Below, one piece after another: positions 1,377-46,537 of a DNA stretch of 64,000 nucleotides (the first letter of the stretch is position 1; the number at the start of each line of letters is the position of its first letter). The notes beneath the pieces are model-generated. The model made no database searches, was not told the origin of the DNA, and saw nothing but the letters and a program-made list of their open reading frames with translations. Position numbers and translations under genes: made by a program. This DNA is from a virus, in the IMG/VR virus record IMGVR_UViG_3300031949_000008, positions 46,228 through 110,227 of that record. The stretch is one strand, 5' to 3'.

Positions 1377-1687
1377 TATTTATCTCCTATTTTATCCAAT
1401 AATTTATAAATTAAATCAAATATCATATTCTGAGTGGAAATCATATAATCTAAAAATGGACTTAATTGATTAAAATTATTAGTCTTTTTAGCAATCATAT
1501 TAGATAGAATTGTTTCTTTAGAATTCTGTAATCCTAATGAAAATCGTTTCATAGGACTAGACCAATTAGGATCTGATATATTTCCAAGATCATTAGTTCT
1601 AGGAATCTCAATTTCATCTTGGTCAACTGGTAATATCCCAAATATATCTTCTATACTCATTTTCATTCTTTTCATTTCTAAAGCCAT
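1376..1687 (-). CDS. Hypothetical protein
   Basis: ORF in operon. Confidence 0.5.
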   Translation of the reverse strand: MALEMKRMKMSIEDIFGILPVDQDEIEIPRTNDLGNISDPNWSSPMKRFSLGLQNSKETILSNMIAKKTNNFNQLSPFLDYMISTQNMIFDLIYKLLDKIGDK

Positions 1688-1695
1688 ATGATCAC

Positions 1696-2160
1696 CTACT
1701 TTAGAGCGATAAATTGACTCTTTCTTAATGCTTTTTCAATCAATGCTAATTGTGTACTTTCAGAAGCCGTAAGTCCACTTACACCCGTTTCAATAATAAC
1801 ACTTTGCGCTTGTACTGGTTGTGAATATTTAATCTGTACATTATAATTTCCTATAGTTGATATGAAAGGATCTTCACCAGTATCTGTTAGTAAGATACCG
1901 CTAGTGACAGTAAGTGTATGACTGGCCTCTTGTGGTCGAATTCTCCATCCATTCATCAAGAAAATATAAGTTGCAACATAAGTATATGTAGCTGCATTAA
2001 CTAATTCCCCACCAACGACAGAAAAGGTCATTAGATACTTACTTCCGCCTTCATCTCTGACCCAATCTTTCCATCTAGAATATAGATCTTTTACATCTAT
2101 TCCTGTTACACTTTCTGTACAAATAATGAGTTTAGTAGTTCCATCAAATATACATGACAT
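1696..2160 (-). CDS. Putative virion structural protein
   Basis: 154 aa in the tail-appendage cluster; DLYSRWKDW...FLMNGWRIRP. Confidence 0.45.
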   Translation of the reverse strand: MSCIFDGTTKLIICTESVTGIDVKDLYSRWKDWVRDEGGSKYLMTFSVVGGELVNAATYTYVATYIFLMNGWRIRPQEASHTLTVTSGILLTDTGEDPFISTIGNYNVQIKYSQPVQAQSVIIETGVSGLTASESTQLALIEKALRKSQFIALK

Positions 2161-2169
2161 AAATCACCA

Positions 2170-3759
2170 TTACGTTGGATTCTGATAATTTCTTTCGAGA
2201 GCGGAAACTAATGAAATTGAATTAGCTGTAGTTCGTGCAATAGTTCCAGTAGTTTTAACAAATTGAGAACCACTTAATCCTAATGCCACAGCTGTTATTG
2301 GTGCATCTGATCCAGATGTTCTGCCGCCTTGTATATTTGAATCATATTCAAATGTTAACTGTACAGATGACCTACTGGAAAGTAATTCTGACATATTCTC
2401 TGTAATCGTTCCACCAATATCAGCAGTATATGCCTCATCACCAGCACAACTTAGATATGTAAATACAACAGAACTTGGAGTAGAAACTACAACATGAACA
2501 CCGTTATATGCAGAACCACCAACACTTGCAATTTCAATACCATCACTTGCAGATAATCCATGTGCTGCAGCAGCTGTAATACTAGTTGTACCAGAACTTC
2601 TTGCACGAGCACTAGTACCGACAGTCTCTGCAGTATTTACTAGTATTGCATCACTATCTCCATAATCACCACTAGGAATACTAGTAAAATATACCCAATA
2701 TTTTGCTGTTGTATCATTTACTAAATTTTCTCCAAAATTCACAGCCAATACAGCTGTATATGGAAATGTTCTTTCTGTTTGAGTATCATCAACAAATACT
2801 AACCTATTAATATCTGCACTTTGGAAATTATCAATATATGTTCCACCTGTTGGTGTAATTGTATAGAATTCTGTATACATTGTATCACCAACAAACCGTA
2901 GCAAATCAGGTGCAGTCTTTCCAATTTGAGTACCAGCACCAATATCAATATCAGAATCAAGTATTAATAAATAATGTACTCTTTGATATATCTCTTCGGC
3001 TGTAAGTTGTGCACCATCTATAATCACATGAAAATCTCTATTAGTACCACCAATATCCCGTTGCTGTGCTGCAGCATACCATGTTATTGAACTATCTGTA
3101 TAAGGTGCGCCTGACATAGAAGATGCTGCTAAAGTAACTTTAATATCTGTTGCATTAGATAAAGGAAAACGATAAGCTTGATATGTTAATGTAGTAACAC
3201 CAATATCATCTAATTCAGATGCTTCATATGATTTACCCCATGTACGACAAAATAATTTAAGATATGTTCGATAATCAAATACTCCAGGTACTCCACCAGA
3301 TGAATAAACACAGATTCCTTCATTTACTGGGCCAGTTAATTGAAAATTTACAGCAGCACTACCAGCTTCTGTTGCAGCTCCTTGTTGAAAATATACTTGA
3401 TCAGCAGCGCCTAAACTTCCTAATGTTACAATACCTGCCCATTCCTGTTCAGATATACCAGTAGTATTTTTCTTGGCCCAACCACCAGTACGTAATAAAT
3501 ATCTTGTAGTATTATCAGCCCAATCCCATGCATTAATCATTTCAAATTGTTCATCGGTAATTGGCCCCATAGGAAAGGTATATTTAATATAAGTCTCATT
3601 AGATTTCCACAGTTCTTTAAGTTTAGAGTAAACACATTTTATTGTTACTCCATCTGTAGAAAGATTTCCAGCTACAAGTAATTGTATAGTTTTACTGCCT
3701 GGAGTTATTACAATTTCTGTTCCATCATTTAATTGATCAGGATCTGTTATTAAAGGCAT
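2170..3759 (-). CDS. Putative virion structural (tail appendage) protein
   Basis: 529 aa, Thr/Ser/Gly-rich beta composition; C-terminus ERNYQNP resembles the neighbour's DRQYQNP. Confidence 0.5.
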   Translation of the reverse strand: MPLITDPDQLNDGTEIVITPGSKTIQLLVAGNLSTDGVTIKCVYSKLKELWKSNETYIKYTFPMGPITDEQFEMINAWDWADNTTRYLLRTGGWAKKNTTGISEQEWAGIVTLGSLGAADQVYFQQGAATEAGSAAVNFQLTGPVNEGICVYSSGGVPGVFDYRTYLKLFCRTWGKSYEASELDDIGVTTLTYQAYRFPLSNATDIKVTLAASSMSGAPYTDSSITWYAAAQQRDIGGTNRDFHVIIDGAQLTAEEIYQRVHYLLILDSDIDIGAGTQIGKTAPDLLRFVGDTMYTEFYTITPTGGTYIDNFQSADINRLVFVDDTQTERTFPYTAVLAVNFGENLVNDTTAKYWVYFTSIPSGDYGDSDAILVNTAETVGTSARARSSGTTSITAAAAHGLSASDGIEIASVGGSAYNGVHVVVSTPSSVVFTYLSCAGDEAYTADIGGTITENMSELLSSRSSVQLTFEYDSNIQGGRTSGSDAPITAVALGLSGSQFVKTTGTIARTTANSISLVSALERNYQNPT

Positions 3760-3774
3760 CTTTTATGTCACTCC

Positions 3775-5334
3775 TTAAGGATTTTGATATTGTCTATCTA
3801 TTTGTTGTGCAATAGGCAAGCTAGAATTAGCATCTAATAATAAATAATCTTCTACACGATAATATTCATAATCTACTTTATATACAACAATATCTACATA
3901 TGTACTTGCAGAATAAGTATAACTATATTGAAAAGTTGTATCAGAACTTTCACTTCCACCCAATTCAGTTGGAGGTGGGCCTGATTGATCAAAAATACGA
4001 ACTTCACTACCAGAAACTATACCGGTTAAAGTTAGAGTTCGTTGGCCAGTAACTATTTGGGTTGTAGCACCTGAACCATTTCTATATGATGGTACATCTC
4101 CTCCATCAATAGTCAATTTTACGTGTTGTCCAGAGTTATTATAAATTGATTCATTACCACTAGTTCCACTAACACCAGTTCCACCAGCAACATAATTAGA
4201 ATATGTTAATCCTGTTAATACATAAGCAGCACTTGCACCTAATGTTGGAATTTCTAGTGCATGATTACTTCCATCTGATATAAATGAGGTATTAGAAATT
4301 AATCCTGGATTATCAGATAAGATAGATCGTGAATCACGTGTGTTATCAAAAAGACATCCATTAAGTGTTGCACCACTTTGATATACAGATGCACATCGAT
4401 TCATTGTAGTTGAATATATTGTACTATTTGACTGTAATGAAAATGTATCCATATCAGTAAATACACAGCCAGTCATTTGAATAGTTGCATTATCAATCGC
4501 AGATAATGCTCCTCTAGACACAGTGCCTAATGCTGTAAAGTTTATATTCTTCCAGCCTATACTAGATGTAGCCTCGCGCATATCAATACGATTAAATCCA
4601 GATGTAACTTTTCTAGTATTTGCTATAACTATATTTTTATTTTCATCATAGAAATTAATAGCACTAGTTCCATAGCCTAATGTCATTAATCCAAACCATT
4701 GGTATCCACCAGATATAGATTGGAATATACCCCACCTATTAGATACATAATCTGCGCTAGTTGCGAATCCTGAAAATGTACATTGATTGCCTACTTCTCC
4801 ATTGCTAAGGCGCATTTCGCCCCGACCATAACGCAGTCCATCTATGCCATGAGGTGCGCCTTTTAATGTACTAACAACATTCGCCAATGAGCCAAACCAC
4901 TGATTAGTACTTGTTGGTGATCCACCTGTTATTTCTGGTGTGACTGATCGGCATACAGGAATACATTCCCAACCACCATATTGATATGTATCAGAACCTC
5001 TTATAATCCAACCAAAGGTATTCGCTTGGCTACTGCCAATTAATACAGATCGGCCACTACTGGTCTCTGTTTGTATATTATTAGGTGCACCAAAATAATA
5101 CCAACCAATAACTGCATCATCAGCATTAAGGGTGATGCCAGTAACATTATTATATACTATGCCACAGAAACCTGCACCAACAGCTTGTGCAATACATGAA
5201 GCACCTTGTATAAAATAGTCAGTTTCAACGGCTGGAATACCACCAGCTTTCCATGTTGAATGTTCAACCCATGTACCAAGAACTTCACCTAAACTTATCT
5301 CTGTTAAATCATTAGAATAGTAAGGTACAGCCAA
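3775..5334 (-). CDS. Putative tail spike/fibre with beta-helix-like region
   Basis: 519 aa, repetitive short beta-strand pattern (GCVFTDM, GCLFDNT, NTSFISDG). Confidence 0.5.
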   Translation of the reverse strand: MAVPYYSNDLTEISLGEVLGTWVEHSTWKAGGIPAVETDYFIQGASCIAQAVGAGFCGIVYNNVTGITLNADDAVIGWYYFGAPNNIQTETSSGRSVLIGSSQANTFGWIIRGSDTYQYGGWECIPVCRSVTPEITGGSPTSTNQWFGSLANVVSTLKGAPHGIDGLRYGRGEMRLSNGEVGNQCTFSGFATSADYVSNRWGIFQSISGGYQWFGLMTLGYGTSAINFYDENKNIVIANTRKVTSGFNRIDMREATSSIGWKNINFTALGTVSRGALSAIDNATIQMTGCVFTDMDTFSLQSNSTIYSTTMNRCASVYQSGATLNGCLFDNTRDSRSILSDNPGLISNTSFISDGSNHALEIPTLGASAAYVLTGLTYSNYVAGGTGVSGTSGNESIYNNSGQHVKLTIDGGDVPSYRNGSGATTQIVTGQRTLTLTGIVSGSEVRIFDQSGPPPTELGGSESSDTTFQYSYTYSASTYVDIVVYKVDYEYYRVEDYLLLDANSSLPIAQQIDRQYQNP

Positions 5335-5667
5335 TTAGTCTGTTATCTCCTTTTCAGTGTTATCAAAATAATAACAGCCAGCCACTATATCTGCAGTACT
5401 TGGTGGATAAGCTTTACAAATCGCTGGACGTTTTTCATAGATTAAACATCTACTTCTATCCTTAGATAAATAAGGACATGGCCCCATAAATAGAATTAAT
5501 TGTCCATTATCCATCCTTTCCACACGAGACGCCCCGACTCTTCGCATAGCAAATTCTGCTTCTGCATTAGTCATTAATGGATCTAAACGAATCCATGTGA
5601 TCAAACAACAATTACCACATCTTTTACAAGTTCCTTCAGATTTCTTTTCTTCCATTATAATAGCCAT
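5335..5667 (-). CDS. YkgJ-family cysteine-cluster (CxxCxxCC, Zn/Fe-chelating) protein
   Basis: CKRCGNCC...CPYL...RCLIYEKRPAICKAYP. Confidence 0.8.
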   Translation of the reverse strand: MAIIMEEKKSEGTCKRCGNCCLITWIRLDPLMTNAEAEFAMRRVGASRVERMDNGQLILFMGPCPYLSKDRSRCLIYEKRPAICKAYPPSTADIVAGCYYFDNTEKEITD

Positions 5668-27431: not shown

Positions 27432-28497
27432 GAGTAAAGAACATTATACTAGCAGTATTTAATAAAGTATCTCCAACTGCCCCAGAGGCGGTACGACTTT
27501 TTCTCATAATTTCCCATACTGAATCATAACCAGAGAGCATTACTGATGGTGTAAAGATAAATGGAGATAAGTTTAAAGCATTAGCTGTTGTACCAGCTGA
27601 CACCGCAGCTGATGATATTTCTGTCAATGCAGAATCAAATATCTGGCCGCCTGATACTCCCACACCATAAATAGTAAATACGACTCCAGCTGGAGATGCA
27701 CTAGTAGTTGATGTTTTCCATCCTATTGTACCAGTCATAGCAGTCTGATTCCAACTACCTAATGTTATAGATGGAGTAAACGCCTTTGTATCATTTCCAC
27801 TTGGAGCATTTATTTGACCATAGTCAAAATTAGTCCCTTCTGTTTGTGCAAAGGCCATCCAAGCAGAAGTAGGTGTTGCTCGTGATTCAAATGCACCAGC
27901 TGGAATTATTACTCTTTTAGCTCCTCCAATACTTGTAGGAGCTACATACGTTCCATCTCCTCTAAAGAAAGTAGTAATATTGCCTGGAAATTTTGGGATT
28001 AAACCATGTGCTCCAGATGTGACATTTAAATCTGTATTGTCATCCGCAGAAGCTAAATCATCTAATTTTATAGAGTCTGCTCCGCCTGATAGATGCTGTG
28101 AGGCATGTGCAGATGCAGCAAAAGCTAATGAATCTAATCCATCTAATAAATTAGAATCATTAGCATTTAAAGAATTTGTAGCTGTTGAAGCACTTAAAGC
28201 ATTCACTGCACAAGTTGCAGAAGCCACTATTGACGTAATCTCTGTTCCTGAATGTGTATGTGCGGATGAAGCAAATGCATCAAAGTCATATCCATCAACT
28301 TTATCTGCATCTAATCCCTTACCTGCTCCTTCACCTGTAAATGTTAGTCCATGTACATTAGAAGTAGCTTGTCGATGTGTCTGTACTAATAATAATTCTG
28401 AATCTGCACACACAAGCCCAGTATCAAATAATGTATATTCTGCTATACCTTGTGCGGCATATGTAGGTCGATAAATAAAAGATGCCCAATTTCCCAT
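27412..28497 (-). CDS. Tail fibre protein
   Basis: DADKVDGYD and NDSNLLDGLDS repeats, AHTH/HASQH motifs, FFRGDGT. Confidence 0.7.
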   Translation of the reverse strand: MGNWASFIYRPTYAAQGIAEYTLFDTGLVCADSELLLVQTHRQATSNVHGLTFTGEGAGKGLDADKVDGYDFDAFASSAHTHSGTEITSIVASATCAVNALSASTATNSLNANDSNLLDGLDSLAFAASAHASQHLSGGADSIKLDDLASADDNTDLNVTSGAHGLIPKFPGNITTFFRGDGTYVAPTSIGGAKRVIIPAGAFESRATPTSAWMAFAQTEGTNFDYGQINAPSGNDTKAFTPSITLGSWNQTAMTGTIGWKTSTTSASPAGVVFTIYGVGVSGGQIFDSALTEISSAAVSAGTTANALNLSPFIFTPSVMLSGYDSVWEIMRKSRTASGAVGDTLLNTASIMFFTLEWTEI

Positions 28498-30514: not shown

Positions 30515-31195
30515 CTAGATTAGCCGGTCACTCCTGTGAGCATTCCCATTTTTGTTAATGATATCTAAATTATTGATATCATACTTGGACATTTCTGCCA
30601 AGTTCTGCATATTCAAATTATATGCAGATCGGACTGTAGCATCATCCTCTTTAATAGGAGCCTCTCGCTCAGTCTCTACGCCTGACTTCTGTCTTGGCTC
30701 GGAATTATCATCGCAGACTTTTCCCGATTTCAGAGAGGTTTTACAAGAGAAATTACTTTCTCCAGGCACGCTTTTTAAACCTGACAGTTTCTCTTTATAA
30801 TATTCACGAACTAATATATCGGCTTTTGTCATTCCTCTAATATAAGCATGACAAACTTTTTCTTGATATTCAATTGCTATTAAAGCTTGTTCATACTTTT
30901 CTTTTAGCCAAGGAAGAATAGTTTGTAAGAATTGTTTTGCATTTTCTCGTTCCACTACATAAACAAATAGTTCACGATAACCATGTTCTTTATTTTTCTT
31001 ACAACTAGTTCTTGTAACAAAACCAATATTAATAGTGTCTTTTATCCATTGCAAAAGTTTTCTATTAGCCATAGTAATTTGTATACGTAAGTAATAATGA
31101 ACTTTACCAGTTTTAGCTCGTTTATTACGAACAATATATACACATCCTTCACTATCAAAAACTCCAGCAATATAAGATAAATCTTCTTTATTCAT
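30515..31195 (-). CDS. Intron-encoded LAGLIDADG homing endonuclease
   Basis: LSYIAGVFDSEGCV; FLQTILPWLKEKYEQA; the frame runs on through the ribozyme core. Confidence 0.85.
   Translation of the reverse strand: MNKEDLSYIAGVFDSEGCVYIVRNKRAKTGKVHYYLRIQITMANRKLLQWIKDTINIGFVTRTSCKKNKEHGYRELFVYVVERENAKQFLQTILPWLKEKYEQALIAIEYQEKVCHAYIRGMTKADILVREYYKEKLSGLKSVPGESNFSCKTSLKSGKVCDDNSEPRQKSGVETEREAPIKEDDATVRSAYNLNMQNLAEMSKYDINNLDIINKNGNAHRSDRLI
30520..30546 (-). CDS. Major capsid protein exon 3 (GMLTGVTG*)
   Basis: GGA ATG CTC ACA GGA GTG ACC GGC TAA directly after the intron terminal G at 30547. Confidence 0.75.
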   Translation of the reverse strand, partial: GMLTGVTG

Positions 31196-31227
31196 AAATA
31201 TTATCCAGTTACTCCGGTCAATAAGGC
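30547..31227 (-). mobile_element. Group I intron 2 in the major capsid gene
   Basis: R-like GTAGAGACTGAGC and S-like GATGCTACAGTCC elements; P9 hairpins; ends ...TAACAAAAATG; exon GCAU|GC can pair with GCGUGC (30766-30771), giving the U-G splice pair. Confidence 0.8.
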
Positions 31228-32280
31228 ATGCTTCTCTTCATTATGGAACTCAAAGCCGATTTCGCAAATATACTGATCTTTTACGAAATCGTCTCCTGGA
31301 TGCTGAATATCAGCTTCCATCGTTACGTCTCTATTCTGAAGATAGCGATAAACCATCTCGTCGAGTTTCAACGCAAACGCATAGCCACCATACAAAGAAG
31401 TATTCGACACAGAACCAGCGTTTTCTAGCATATAGTCCTTGATCAAATTCAAGGTTCCATGAGGAGAGAGATACTGAGCAATTGCAATTCCGTAGGTTTT
31501 ATCCTTGGAATACATCTGCAATTTGCCCTGCGCCCATTGACTAATTACGGATATGATAAGAGGAGAAGCCAATAAATACACTTCGTCTCCACCAAATCTC
31601 GTCACTGTCCTAATGAAAGCCTCAAAATCGGATTCAGTAAGAATTCCGCCAACTGCTGTCACGTTTGTGCTGATAAAATAATCAGCTCCACCTGACGTTC
31701 GCCGTGCGTGAGAGATAGTTGCATCTAACCCACTCGACGTGTCTTCTAACCGCTCGCCATATAAAGCCATACGCTCGATGTCTCGCATTAACTCAATACC
31801 CTTTACCTTCCGCTCATACGCACGATAATTTCCGCCGTACAATTCAGAATTTAACATCGAATTAGTCACCTCAACGGATTTTCTAATAGTCTGTAGATAA
31901 TTGAAAACACGAGCAGCTTTGCGACTCTTGGACACTAATGCAGTAGAAGCAGAACCTTCCTCAAATGCCGCACCGATGATCACCATAGTAGAAGAATTTG
32001 CTGCACTAGCTGCAGTTGTTGCGCCATACGCTCTAATAGCCGTAACCGCACATGCTGCAGTTGCTGTAATAAGAATAACTTCACCAGTAGCAGGAATCTT
32101 AACGAGATCATACTTGTTAAAGTAGTTACCTTCGTTAGTTGCCACAGTAAAATTAGTCGCAGCAGATGTAGCAGAAGCTGCCAAAGATGACCAAGATGGA
32201 TTTAAGTCGTTTTCAGGCCATTCGATTGTAGTATTAATAGCAACTCGTTTATTAAGACGAGAAACTAGAACATACAAAGG
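31201..32280 (-). CDS. Major capsid protein (SU10/DUF5309-like), exon 2 (31228-32280) plus the unspliced C-terminus
   Basis: EWPEND, NYLQTIRKSVEVT, ELMRDIERMALYG, R.SGG...I.TN, E.GFE..NE..H; the true N-terminus is exon 1 at 33031-33138. Confidence 0.9.
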   Translation of the reverse strand, partial: PLYVLVSRLNKRVAINTTIEWPENDLNPSWSSLAASATSAATNFTVATNEGNYFNKYDLVKIPATGEVILITATAACAVTAIRAYGATTAASAANSSTMVIIGAAFEEGSASTALVSKSRKAARVFNYLQTIRKSVEVTNSMLNSELYGGNYRAYERKVKGIELMRDIERMALYGERLEDTSSGLDATISHARRTSGGADYFISTNVTAVGGILTESDFEAFIRTVTRFGGDEVYLLASPLIISVISQWAQGKLQMYSKDKTYGIAIAQYLSPHGTLNLIKDYMLENAGSVSNTSLYGGYAFALKLDEMVYRYLQNRDVTMEADIQHPGDDFVKDQYICEIGFEFHNEEKHALLTGVTG

Positions 32281-33030
32281 CAATCTGTTACTTTAAGACC
32301 TATTTCTAGGCGGATAGTTATTTCTAACTATCTCTACATATCACTATGTAGTTCGGACTATATCATCAACGAAGTATTAAAACTTTGTTGGCTTCCCGTA
32401 TAGTCTCTGAGGGAGATGGTGGATTATGTTTTAAATCTAGTAATTCTTGAATTAACTTATTAAGTATTTCATCTTGATCAAGTGGTTTCCAATCAGGATC
32501 AACATTCCATCCCGTCCATCGTGATCCTTGAATCTTTTTAAAACCACCTTTATAACCAAGACTATCTCTATATTCAATTAATTCTAAGAACTTATGTACT
32601 TGATCTCGCTTATTGTAAATGTAAGGTAAAATTCCTAAAAGAACTTTCTTACAATTTCCTTTTCCTTGTACTACAATTGAGATTGCCCATTTTCTATTAG
32701 GTCTATTATCTTTATAAGTTCTATAATAAAACCCAATCTTATTTTCTTTATAAATTATACTAACTTTCTCAATCATACGAGGATCAGTATTATCAATTTT
32801 AATTCTACAATAAAAGCCCTTGGTTACTAATAATTCACCAGTTTTTTTACTTAGATTCTTTCTGGTACACCAATTAGCTTCTAATGATCCTTCTCCATCA
32901 ATAATACCTGCGAGCCAAGACCACCTTATCTTCCTGCTGATTGTCTCTTCGTCCATACTTTATTCCTCCTTGGGAAATGGATATGAGATATTCCAGCATC
33001 AGGGATGCTTTATAGCCACCCATTTTACTA
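32281..33030 (-). mobile_element. Group I intron 1 in the major capsid gene
   Basis: P1 AGCCGCU pairs with GGUGGCU with U-G at the splice site; canonical R TCAGAGACTATA and S GATGATATAGTCC; terminal ...AACAGATTG; splicing gives LLQPEAA|PLYVLV in frame. Confidence 0.92.
32366..32956 (-). CDS. Intron-encoded LAGLIDADG homing endonuclease
   Basis: WLAGIIDGEGSL; ILPYIYNKRDQ. Confidence 0.9.
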   Translation of the reverse strand: MDEETISRKIRWSWLAGIIDGEGSLEANWCTRKNLSKKTGELLVTKGFYCRIKIDNTDPRMIEKVSIIYKENKIGFYYRTYKDNRPNRKWAISIVVQGKGNCKKVLLGILPYIYNKRDQVHKFLELIEYRDSLGYKGGFKKIQGSRWTGWNVDPDWKPLDQDEILNKLIQELLDLKHNPPSPSETIREANKVLILR

Positions 33031-33138
33031 AGCGGCTTCTGGCTGTAAAAGATAAATTTTATCAGCCATGTCAACGACTCTCAAGTTCGACAATATATTC
33101 TGAGAACCAGTTGCATTCGTTACCATTGTAGCTGCCAT
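33031..33138 (-). CDS. Major capsid protein exon 1 (36 codons)
   Basis: MAATMVTNATGSQNILSNLRVVDMADKIYLLQPEAA after a GGGGTG RBS, followed by TAG (the first intron bases). Confidence 0.88.
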
Positions 33139-46132: not shown

Positions 46133-46537
46133 TATAATTTCTCCTTAGCAAGATCTCAATATTATAACTAGTATAAAAAGTACTATACATAAACCTATAA
46201 ATGATATTATAGTATTTATGAAACCGTCATCCCTGTGTGCCCAATAATTACATCTTGAGAGATTATATTGAATTCGTCCTGGATATATACATACCCACCA
46301 TTTAACCTTATCTATCCCTTTAAATTTATATAGTCTATTTCCACATTTAGGACATATTTTCATACTTCTTCTACCCCTATCTCAATGATTGGACAATCTT
46401 CATAGTAATACCATTTGTCTATTCTTTTCTTTAGCCAATTACACCAACATGTTCCTTCTTCAAAGAAAGGACAGTCTATGCACTTCTTATTAGGTCTAAT
46501 GGTTACTTTATTTGTGATAGCGTAACATCCTAAGATC

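Follow-up and report, generated by a model that had tools for sequence, protein, structure and literature searches.

The window analysed here, a stretch of 64,000 nucleotides (nt) of the virus record IMGVR_UViG_3300031949_000008 (positions 46,228 to 110,227; the record is metagenome-assembled, 110,227 bp long and rated 98% complete), carries the gene for a major capsid protein of the SU10 type. This gene is divided by two introns, A and B, and the second of them, eight codons before the stop codon, contains a LAGLIDADG homing endonuclease gene, the core of a group I ribozyme and, directly behind the 5′ splice site, a further copy of the end of the capsid gene, referred to below as the spare tail. 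The capsid exons, both introns, the endonuclease gene and both tails lie on the minus strand, as follows, with a slash marking a splice site.

31201..31227, minus strand: spare tail inside intron B, GCC TTA TTG ACC GGA GTA ACT GGA TAA, read as ALLTGVTG and a stop, in frame with the capsid exon.
30520..30546, minus strand: last exon, GGA ATG CTC ACA GGA GTG ACC GGC TAA, read as GMLTGVTG and a stop, followed by the native downstream spacer as in the related phage L001.
30547..31227, minus strand: intron B, a predicted 681-nt group I intron with the 5′ splice site CAU/GCC, a cassette in the P1 loop, the core and a terminal G at 30547; its junction was set by the C-termini of homologues.
30515..31195, minus strand: LAGLIDADG homing endonuclease open reading frame (ORF) of 226 amino acids (aa), with its ATG 5 nt past the TAA of the spare tail; the domain covers about residues 1-145 (31195 to about 30761), and behind it the frame continues across the ribozyme and into the last exon.
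30766..30771, minus strand: 3′ strand of P1, or internal guide, GC-GUGC, 3 nt before P2, pairing with GCAU/GC at 31231..31226, about 455 nt upstream.
30747..30762, minus strand: P2 hairpin, GAGAAA-GUAA-UUUCUC, with a GNRA loop; all 6 pairs covary in five family members.
30605..30738, minus strand: core P3-P9, with P3 at 30738-30731/30667-30661, P7 at 30674-30670/30636-30632 and P9 at 30627-30620/30612-30605.
30548..30602, minus strand: P9.1 (30602-30584), P9.2 (30581-30559) and the 3′ tail UUAACAAAAAU before the terminal G; P9.1 covaries, and the 3′ end resembles the family motif GUAACAG(AUUG) that abuts the splice site.
31228..32280, minus strand: main capsid exon, 351 codons, ending ...GAA GAG AAG CAU; matches Pfam SU10_MCP (2.1e-38) and is contiguous with homologues of 387-397 aa.
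33031..33138, minus strand: capsid exon 1, 36 codons (MAATMVT...LLQPEAA), with the gene start at 33138.
32281..33030, minus strand: intron A, 750 nt, between codons 36 and 37 (GCU/UAG...AUUG/CCU), with a LAGLIDADG-like ORF of 196 aa.

A first-pass annotation made from the letters alone had described ALLTGVTG and a stop in frame after ...EEKH, then the LAGLIDADG gene, a group I core and finally GMLTGVTG with its stop, and each of these elements was found where it had been placed. As read from the sequence, the unspliced RNA encodes a capsid protein of 395 aa ending in HALLTGVTG and the spliced RNA the ancestral form ending in HGMLTGVTG, so that both RNAs would specify a complete protein of equal length, as had been proposed. 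When all six frames of the window were searched for look-alikes of GMLTGVTG (an 8-mer followed by a stop, with at least 6 of 8 residues matching), these two tails were the only ones returned, and the best matches across 40 shuffled windows reached 4-5 of 8; the resemblance of the tails to each other is far beyond chance. The C-termini of 120 capsid homologues were then compared. The closest full-length homologues (P0004-P0008 and P0011, 78-87% identical) end in ...EEKHGMLTGVTG, a peptide identical to that of the last exon, which marks the downstream tail as the ancestral last exon, and the junction CAU/GGA put forward in the earlier annotation reproduces the C-termini of P0004-P0008. In an allele lacking the intron, the target around the insertion site would read ...GAAGAGAAGCAT/GGAATGCTCACAGG....

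Two residues are changed in the spare tail, G to A and M to L. Intron-less capsid genes with alanine after the histidine are found in L013 (KHAALTGVTG) and L034 (KHAELTGVTG), the position after the alanine is highly variable and is also occupied by leucine in intron-less relatives, and both substitutions are within the variation of the family. The final residues G357, T359 and G360, which are invariant or nearly so in the homologues, are kept by both tails. Since the tails differ by G/A and M/L at variable positions, the suggestion that they supply two functionally distinct capsid isoforms is unlikely. At the nucleotide level the tails share 17 of 27 positions (3 of the 9 beside the insertion site and 14 of the 18 beyond it); the L001 tail matches the spare tail at 21 of 27, and each of the two tails matches that of L001 at 20-21 of 27. 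Judged by these counts the spare tail is not a recent copy of the exon of its own genome, and the two tails look like the ends of two diverged capsid alleles, in which case the synonymous changes can predate the duplication. The earlier argument from synonymous codons for selection on both tails is not sustained by these figures for the places that the tails now occupy. The alanine-type tails (KHA...) of other homologues were considered as further tails borne by introns and were ruled out, since in L013 and L034 the gene is continuous and has one tail only. No short capsid fragment with HALLTGVTG at its end turned up in a search for such pieces.

The position of helix P1 decides where the spare tail lies within the intron, and it rests on two independent lines, protein homology for the exon side and the family alignment for the guide side. 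In the helix formed by GCAU/GC and GCGUGC, the uracil at 31228, which is the final exon base ahead of intron B, stands opposite the guanine at 30769 and forms a U·G pair, and the first two intron bases, the GC of the alanine codon, belong to the helix as well. The pairing of GCAU with GUGC is identical in L095/L101. P1 of the window is a long-range helix of 6 bp with a duplex energy of -9.6 kcal/mol, and inspection by eye revealed no local P1 near the 5′ splice site. In the relatives P1 is always a local hairpin with a loop of 3-12 nt, and the guide lies 0-4 nt before P2, which has a stem of 6-7 bp and a GNRA loop. With the guide and the 5′ splice site placed in this way, the spare tail, the spacer and the endonuclease gene occupy the P1 loop, as a cassette of about 430 nt that consists of the rest of the 9-codon copy of the capsid 3′ end with its stop, the 5-nt spacer and the LAGLIDADG gene. 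The segment UUUCUCUU, complementary to the exon sequence AAGAGAA, was considered as an alternative guide and was rejected, as it forms the 3′ strand of the covarying P2 and would give GCAU no partner.

The search with group I models that the first-pass annotation had proposed produced a match of the full Rfam model Intron_gpI (RF00028) to positions 30787..30605, with 38 bits and an E value of 5e-8 in a scan of 781 nt, a score below the gathering score of 50; intron B was not detected in a scan of 8 kb, and only the scan of less than 1 kb gave the match. The core P3-P9 with its P3/P7 pseudoknot is present, and the 3′ end ...AAAAATG places the terminal G (30547) directly before GGA ATG. The claim of a group I intron was borne out, with the canonical U as last exon base and a G as last intron base where the junction had been proposed. 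Pattern searches of viral and metagenome contigs with conserved core segments retrieved relatives of the ribozyme in L083, L092, L095 (the same as L101/L104), L097 (the same as L100/L102), L098/L103, L099 and L105. A structure comprising P2-P9.1 and the P3/P7 pseudoknot was drawn for an alignment of five members, in which 97% of the pair cells hold standard pairs and 23 of the 50 pairs are changed on both sides in a compensatory manner; none of 500 shuffles reached the observed values, and slid controls gave about 40% pairing. In the window copy every one of the 50 pairs can form, and it departs from a consensus of the other four members at 4 positions (private substitutions, of which the other members have 2-12); by these measures the ribozyme is intact and without signs of decay.

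Host genes of the relatives include another capsid gene of the SU10 type (L097) and one of the Phage_capsid_4 type (L083, with 24 bits, below the cut-off of 27), and the ribozyme of intron B is, by sequence and predicted structure, a member of a compact intron family of capsid genes in unrelated phages. The core of this family is nearly invariant (AACCUCUCUGAA.UCGG ... GUAGAGACUGAGCGAGAGGCUC ... ACAGUCCGA). Its members occur in phages of very different G+C content, with a capsid gene as host wherever this was checked, and some of them, including L092 and L101, are ORF-less while others have an ORF after P9.1. Promoter and terminator scans gave nothing better than shuffled sequences.

The endonuclease matches the Pfam families LAGLIDADG_3 (PF14528; 1.9e-6) and LAGLIDADG_1 (PF00961; 3.2e-5), both above the cut-offs, and phrog_5046 (5.5e-23). 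A single motif, YIAGVFDSEGC, is present, from which the protein is probably a homodimer. No good ribosome binding site precedes its start, the nearest candidate being a GGAG about 20 nt upstream. The frame lacks a stop codon of its own and extends over P2-P9.2 (30766-30515) and the 3′ splice site to end beyond the stop codon of the exon. The same fusion of endonuclease and ribozyme was found in two further metagenomic proteins, P0121 from ENA (1554-nt contig, 93% identical) and P0122 from JGI (982-nt contig, 85% identical), in which the same frame terminates in the P9 loop. By our own count the read-through part is 96% and 88% identical in P0121 and P0122, compared with 92% and 84% for the endonuclease domain, and when the differences were mapped onto the structure they fell into the loops L5, L6 and L8 and into P9, a pattern that points to constraint at the level of the RNA. 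Neither loci related to the window endonuclease in viral contigs nor loci related to P0122 in metagenome contigs were found, and blastn and tblastn against cultured phages gave no close relative.

The closest endonuclease with a known DNA context is encoded by a 154-aa gene of L001, a phage of 106 kb that lacks an intron at this site and whose capsid protein is 91% identical to that of the window. Identity between the two endonucleases is 32% (E 8e-17), in an alignment that ends at residue 143 of the window protein. The L001 gene is free-standing and starts 27 nt past the capsid stop (...KHGLLTGVTG and stop), and past its own stop the native spacer resumes and aligns with the sequence that follows the last exon in the window. 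This gene lends support to the view that the element of the window is a form intermediate between intron and free-standing endonuclease. An ORF-less intron at exactly this capsid site was not found.

Taken together, these data are explained with fair probability by a composite mobile group I intron, inserted eight codons before the stop of the SU10-type major capsid gene and equipped with a spare tail that would bypass the predicted splicing. Two things would probably hamper the splicing of intron B, the length of its translated P1 loop and the passage of ribosomes through the core in the endonuclease frame, and the spare tail would let capsid synthesis go ahead without this splicing. Ribosomes that finish the capsid frame could restart 5 nt further on at the endonuclease AUG, a form of translation coupling, and would then cross the whole ribozyme and block its folding on that transcript, which the spare tail would nevertheless make productive; transcripts that fold first would be spliced. 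The recoded bases beside the junction may protect the genome from being cleaved again by its own endonuclease. As to the origin, an endonuclease gene located just past the capsid stop, as in L001, may have entered the P1 loop of an ORF-less intron and carried the adjacent gene end with it, which matches the merger route reviewed in PMC8393795; the reverse order, with the intron first and a later loss of the ribozyme, is possible. A more tentative extension is that the spare tail is an adaptive and transmissible part of the element, which would then be in a third state, intermediate between intron and free-standing endonuclease gene: its own replacement exon would free the host gene from splicing, its endonuclease would be coupled to the most heavily translated gene of the phage, and the ribozyme would serve as a second route. 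If this possibility is correct, loss of the ribozyme would yield arrangements of capsid gene, stop and endonuclease gene like that of L001, so that the window would show one stage in the turnover of elements of this kind.

Several observations weigh against the composite intron with its bypass. The ribozyme is conserved in the relatives with the same fusion, which suggests that splicing still matters and weakens the notion that it is optional. P1 has only 6 bp, the guide region has better thermodynamic partners, and duplex energies do not single P1 out. A P10 between the guide and the 3′ exon was not found, at most 1 bp being possible, and it is likewise absent in L083; P10 is not needed by every group I intron. 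A second double tail was found neither among 80 viral loci nor among the metagenome hits, which leaves the arrangement in one genome only, and the L001 endonuclease is only 32% identical, so that the proposed origin is inferred. The capsid gene also depends on the splicing of intron A regardless of intron B. A UAG stands directly at the 5′ splice site of intron A, so that the capsid protein needs this intron to be removed; the product requires at least one splice, and splicing would be optional, as had been claimed, for intron B and not for the gene.

The same facts could be read as those of an intron that splices efficiently, with the spare tail as a neutral passenger, either a scrap of the capsid 3′ end that was brought into the P1 loop with the endonuclease gene or a sequence kept only as a translation leader for it, and with a negligible amount of capsid protein coming from unspliced RNA. 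The ribozyme is intact here and conserved in two other genomes, the phage copes with splicing in its most expressed gene since intron A must splice well, and an in-frame stop soon past the 5′ splice site, as in T4 td, is usual in phage introns. We nonetheless hold this explanation to be doubtful, for the tail is preserved to the last codon, keeps the reading frame and the length, and is typical of the family at G357, T359 and G360, and the endonuclease frame spans the whole ribozyme, so that translation should compete with folding and some unspliced, translated RNA is expected. The opposite view, that no splicing is left and that the locus is an endonuclease insertion with replacement of the 3′ end in the style of fungal mitochondria, the ribozyme and the old tail being decaying remnants, seems improbable. 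It would agree with a capsid frame that is complete without splicing, with the short and long-range P1 and the missing P10, with an endonuclease ORF that continues across the core after the loss of its own stop, and with the C-terminal duplications documented beside endonuclease genes (PMC6279837). Decay, however, is not what the ribozyme displays, all 50 family pairs being kept and its private substitutions (4) being as few as those of the relatives or fewer; the canonical U·G pair and the terminal G fall exactly at the junction defined by homology, the old tail encodes a peptide identical to that of the closest relatives, and the read-through of the ribozyme is conserved in P0121 and P0122.

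An assembly chimera, in which a strain with the order capsid gene, stop and endonuclease gene was joined to a strain with an endonuclease-bearing intron within a shared endonuclease gene, is conceivable for a record assembled from a metagenome, in which the junction of tail and endonuclease is seen in one data set only. This is very improbable, given that the junction of endonuclease and ribozyme is present independently in the ENA and JGI proteins, that no free-standing copy of the window endonuclease was found and that the GC at the start of the intron is paired with the guide region, as would be expected of a real P1.

Group I introns in capsid genes are known from mycobacteriophage LittleE and lactococcal phage Tuc2009, with LAGLIDADG genes in phage structural genes (PMC3706429). 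Intron B resembles these in being of the self-splicing type, in having a U before the 5′ splice site, a terminal G and an endonuclease gene, and in residing in a major capsid gene. The LittleE and Tuc2009 introns must splice for the capsid protein to be made, whereas the intron of the window itself provides, in frame, a replacement for the entire last exon; its endonuclease gene lies in the P1 loop, while the ORF-carrying members of its ribozyme family have theirs in P9. In T4 td an in-frame stop occurs just inside a group I intron, and the unspliced product is truncated and non-functional. In both cases translation of the upstream exon ends shortly past the 5′ splice site and before the core, and in the window, unlike in td, the eight codons before the stop rebuild the natural C-terminus.

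Similar to the fungal case mentioned above, a 3′-end duplication of atp6 reportedly exists in Allomyces. In the mitochondria of Endoconidiophora resinifera, 3′-end duplications of atp6 and cob lie beside free-standing homing endonuclease genes (PMC6279837). The window shares with these an insertion that brings a replacement gene end, with the original end displaced downstream and with differing nucleotide sequences of the two. The displaced fungal end is an untranslated remnant without a ribozyme to join it, whereas here an intact predicted ribozyme and correct splice sites lie between the ends, and the displaced end, whose peptide is intact, could be joined and used. The endonuclease gene is not outside an intron either; it is found between the 5′ splice site and the guide of an intact ribozyme.

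The merger of free-standing endonucleases with ORF-less phage introns is said to have been described in 2009 by Zeng, Bonocora and Shub and by Bonocora and Shub. According to a review, phage introns and endonuclease genes with a common target site fuse into composite elements (PMC8393795), and the work of 2009 on free-standing endonucleases and ORF-less introns in phages is cited in PMC6279837 and summarised in PMC8393795. The locus resembles this model in that a related free-standing endonuclease gene lies beside the same gene in L001 and ORF-less relatives of the ribozyme exist in L092 and L101, and the element of the window looks like the merged product; it differs from the described mergers by keeping a piece of the flanking gene, for which no description was found. 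Literature searches gave no intron with a replacement gene end in its P1 loop, which does not prove that none exists. The persistence of self-splicing introns is commonly attributed to the need of the host gene to have them removed, and free-standing endonuclease genes avoid harm by an intergenic position or by replacing the gene end that they disrupt. The element of the window would combine both strategies, removal of an intron and replacement of a gene end. If both routes operate, it would show either an intron that is losing its hold on the host or a merger of endonuclease and ribozyme, and models of mobile intron formation and decay would gain a concrete intermediate.

Intron A has a local P1 (AGCCGCU/...GGUGGCU), and joining of its exons restores ...LLQPEAA/PLYVLVS, in agreement with the homologues. 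The true product of the gene has 395 aa, and the 360-aa protein proposed by the gene caller is wrong at both ends, which matters for annotation. Homologues of the intron A ORF were found at the same capsid site in eight relatives (L003, L010, L011, L013, L014, L020, L021 and L028).

Directly after the capsid gene lies another LAGLIDADG-like ORF of 129-132 aa (phrog_5046, 4.5e-6), seen at 30453-30055 on the minus strand of the window and in at least 13 relatives, with the position 5934-6323 in L001; its conserved place and sequence are unusual for a selfish endonuclease and suggest a domesticated protein. The family phrog_5046 is labelled “HNH endonuclease”, yet it matches all three LAGLIDADG-type proteins of this locus, and the label looks wrong. 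A weak match to the Rfam model tmRNA_permuted at 28111-28263 on the minus strand (21 bits, E 0.37, with a gathering score of 47) is probably due to chance. In L001 the capsid gene (1643-5349) is broken by ORF-bearing insertions at about four other sites, near residues 25-35, 60, 184 and 374, and other capsid homologues are broken near residues 287-296 and 320; this capsid gene is a hot spot for introns.

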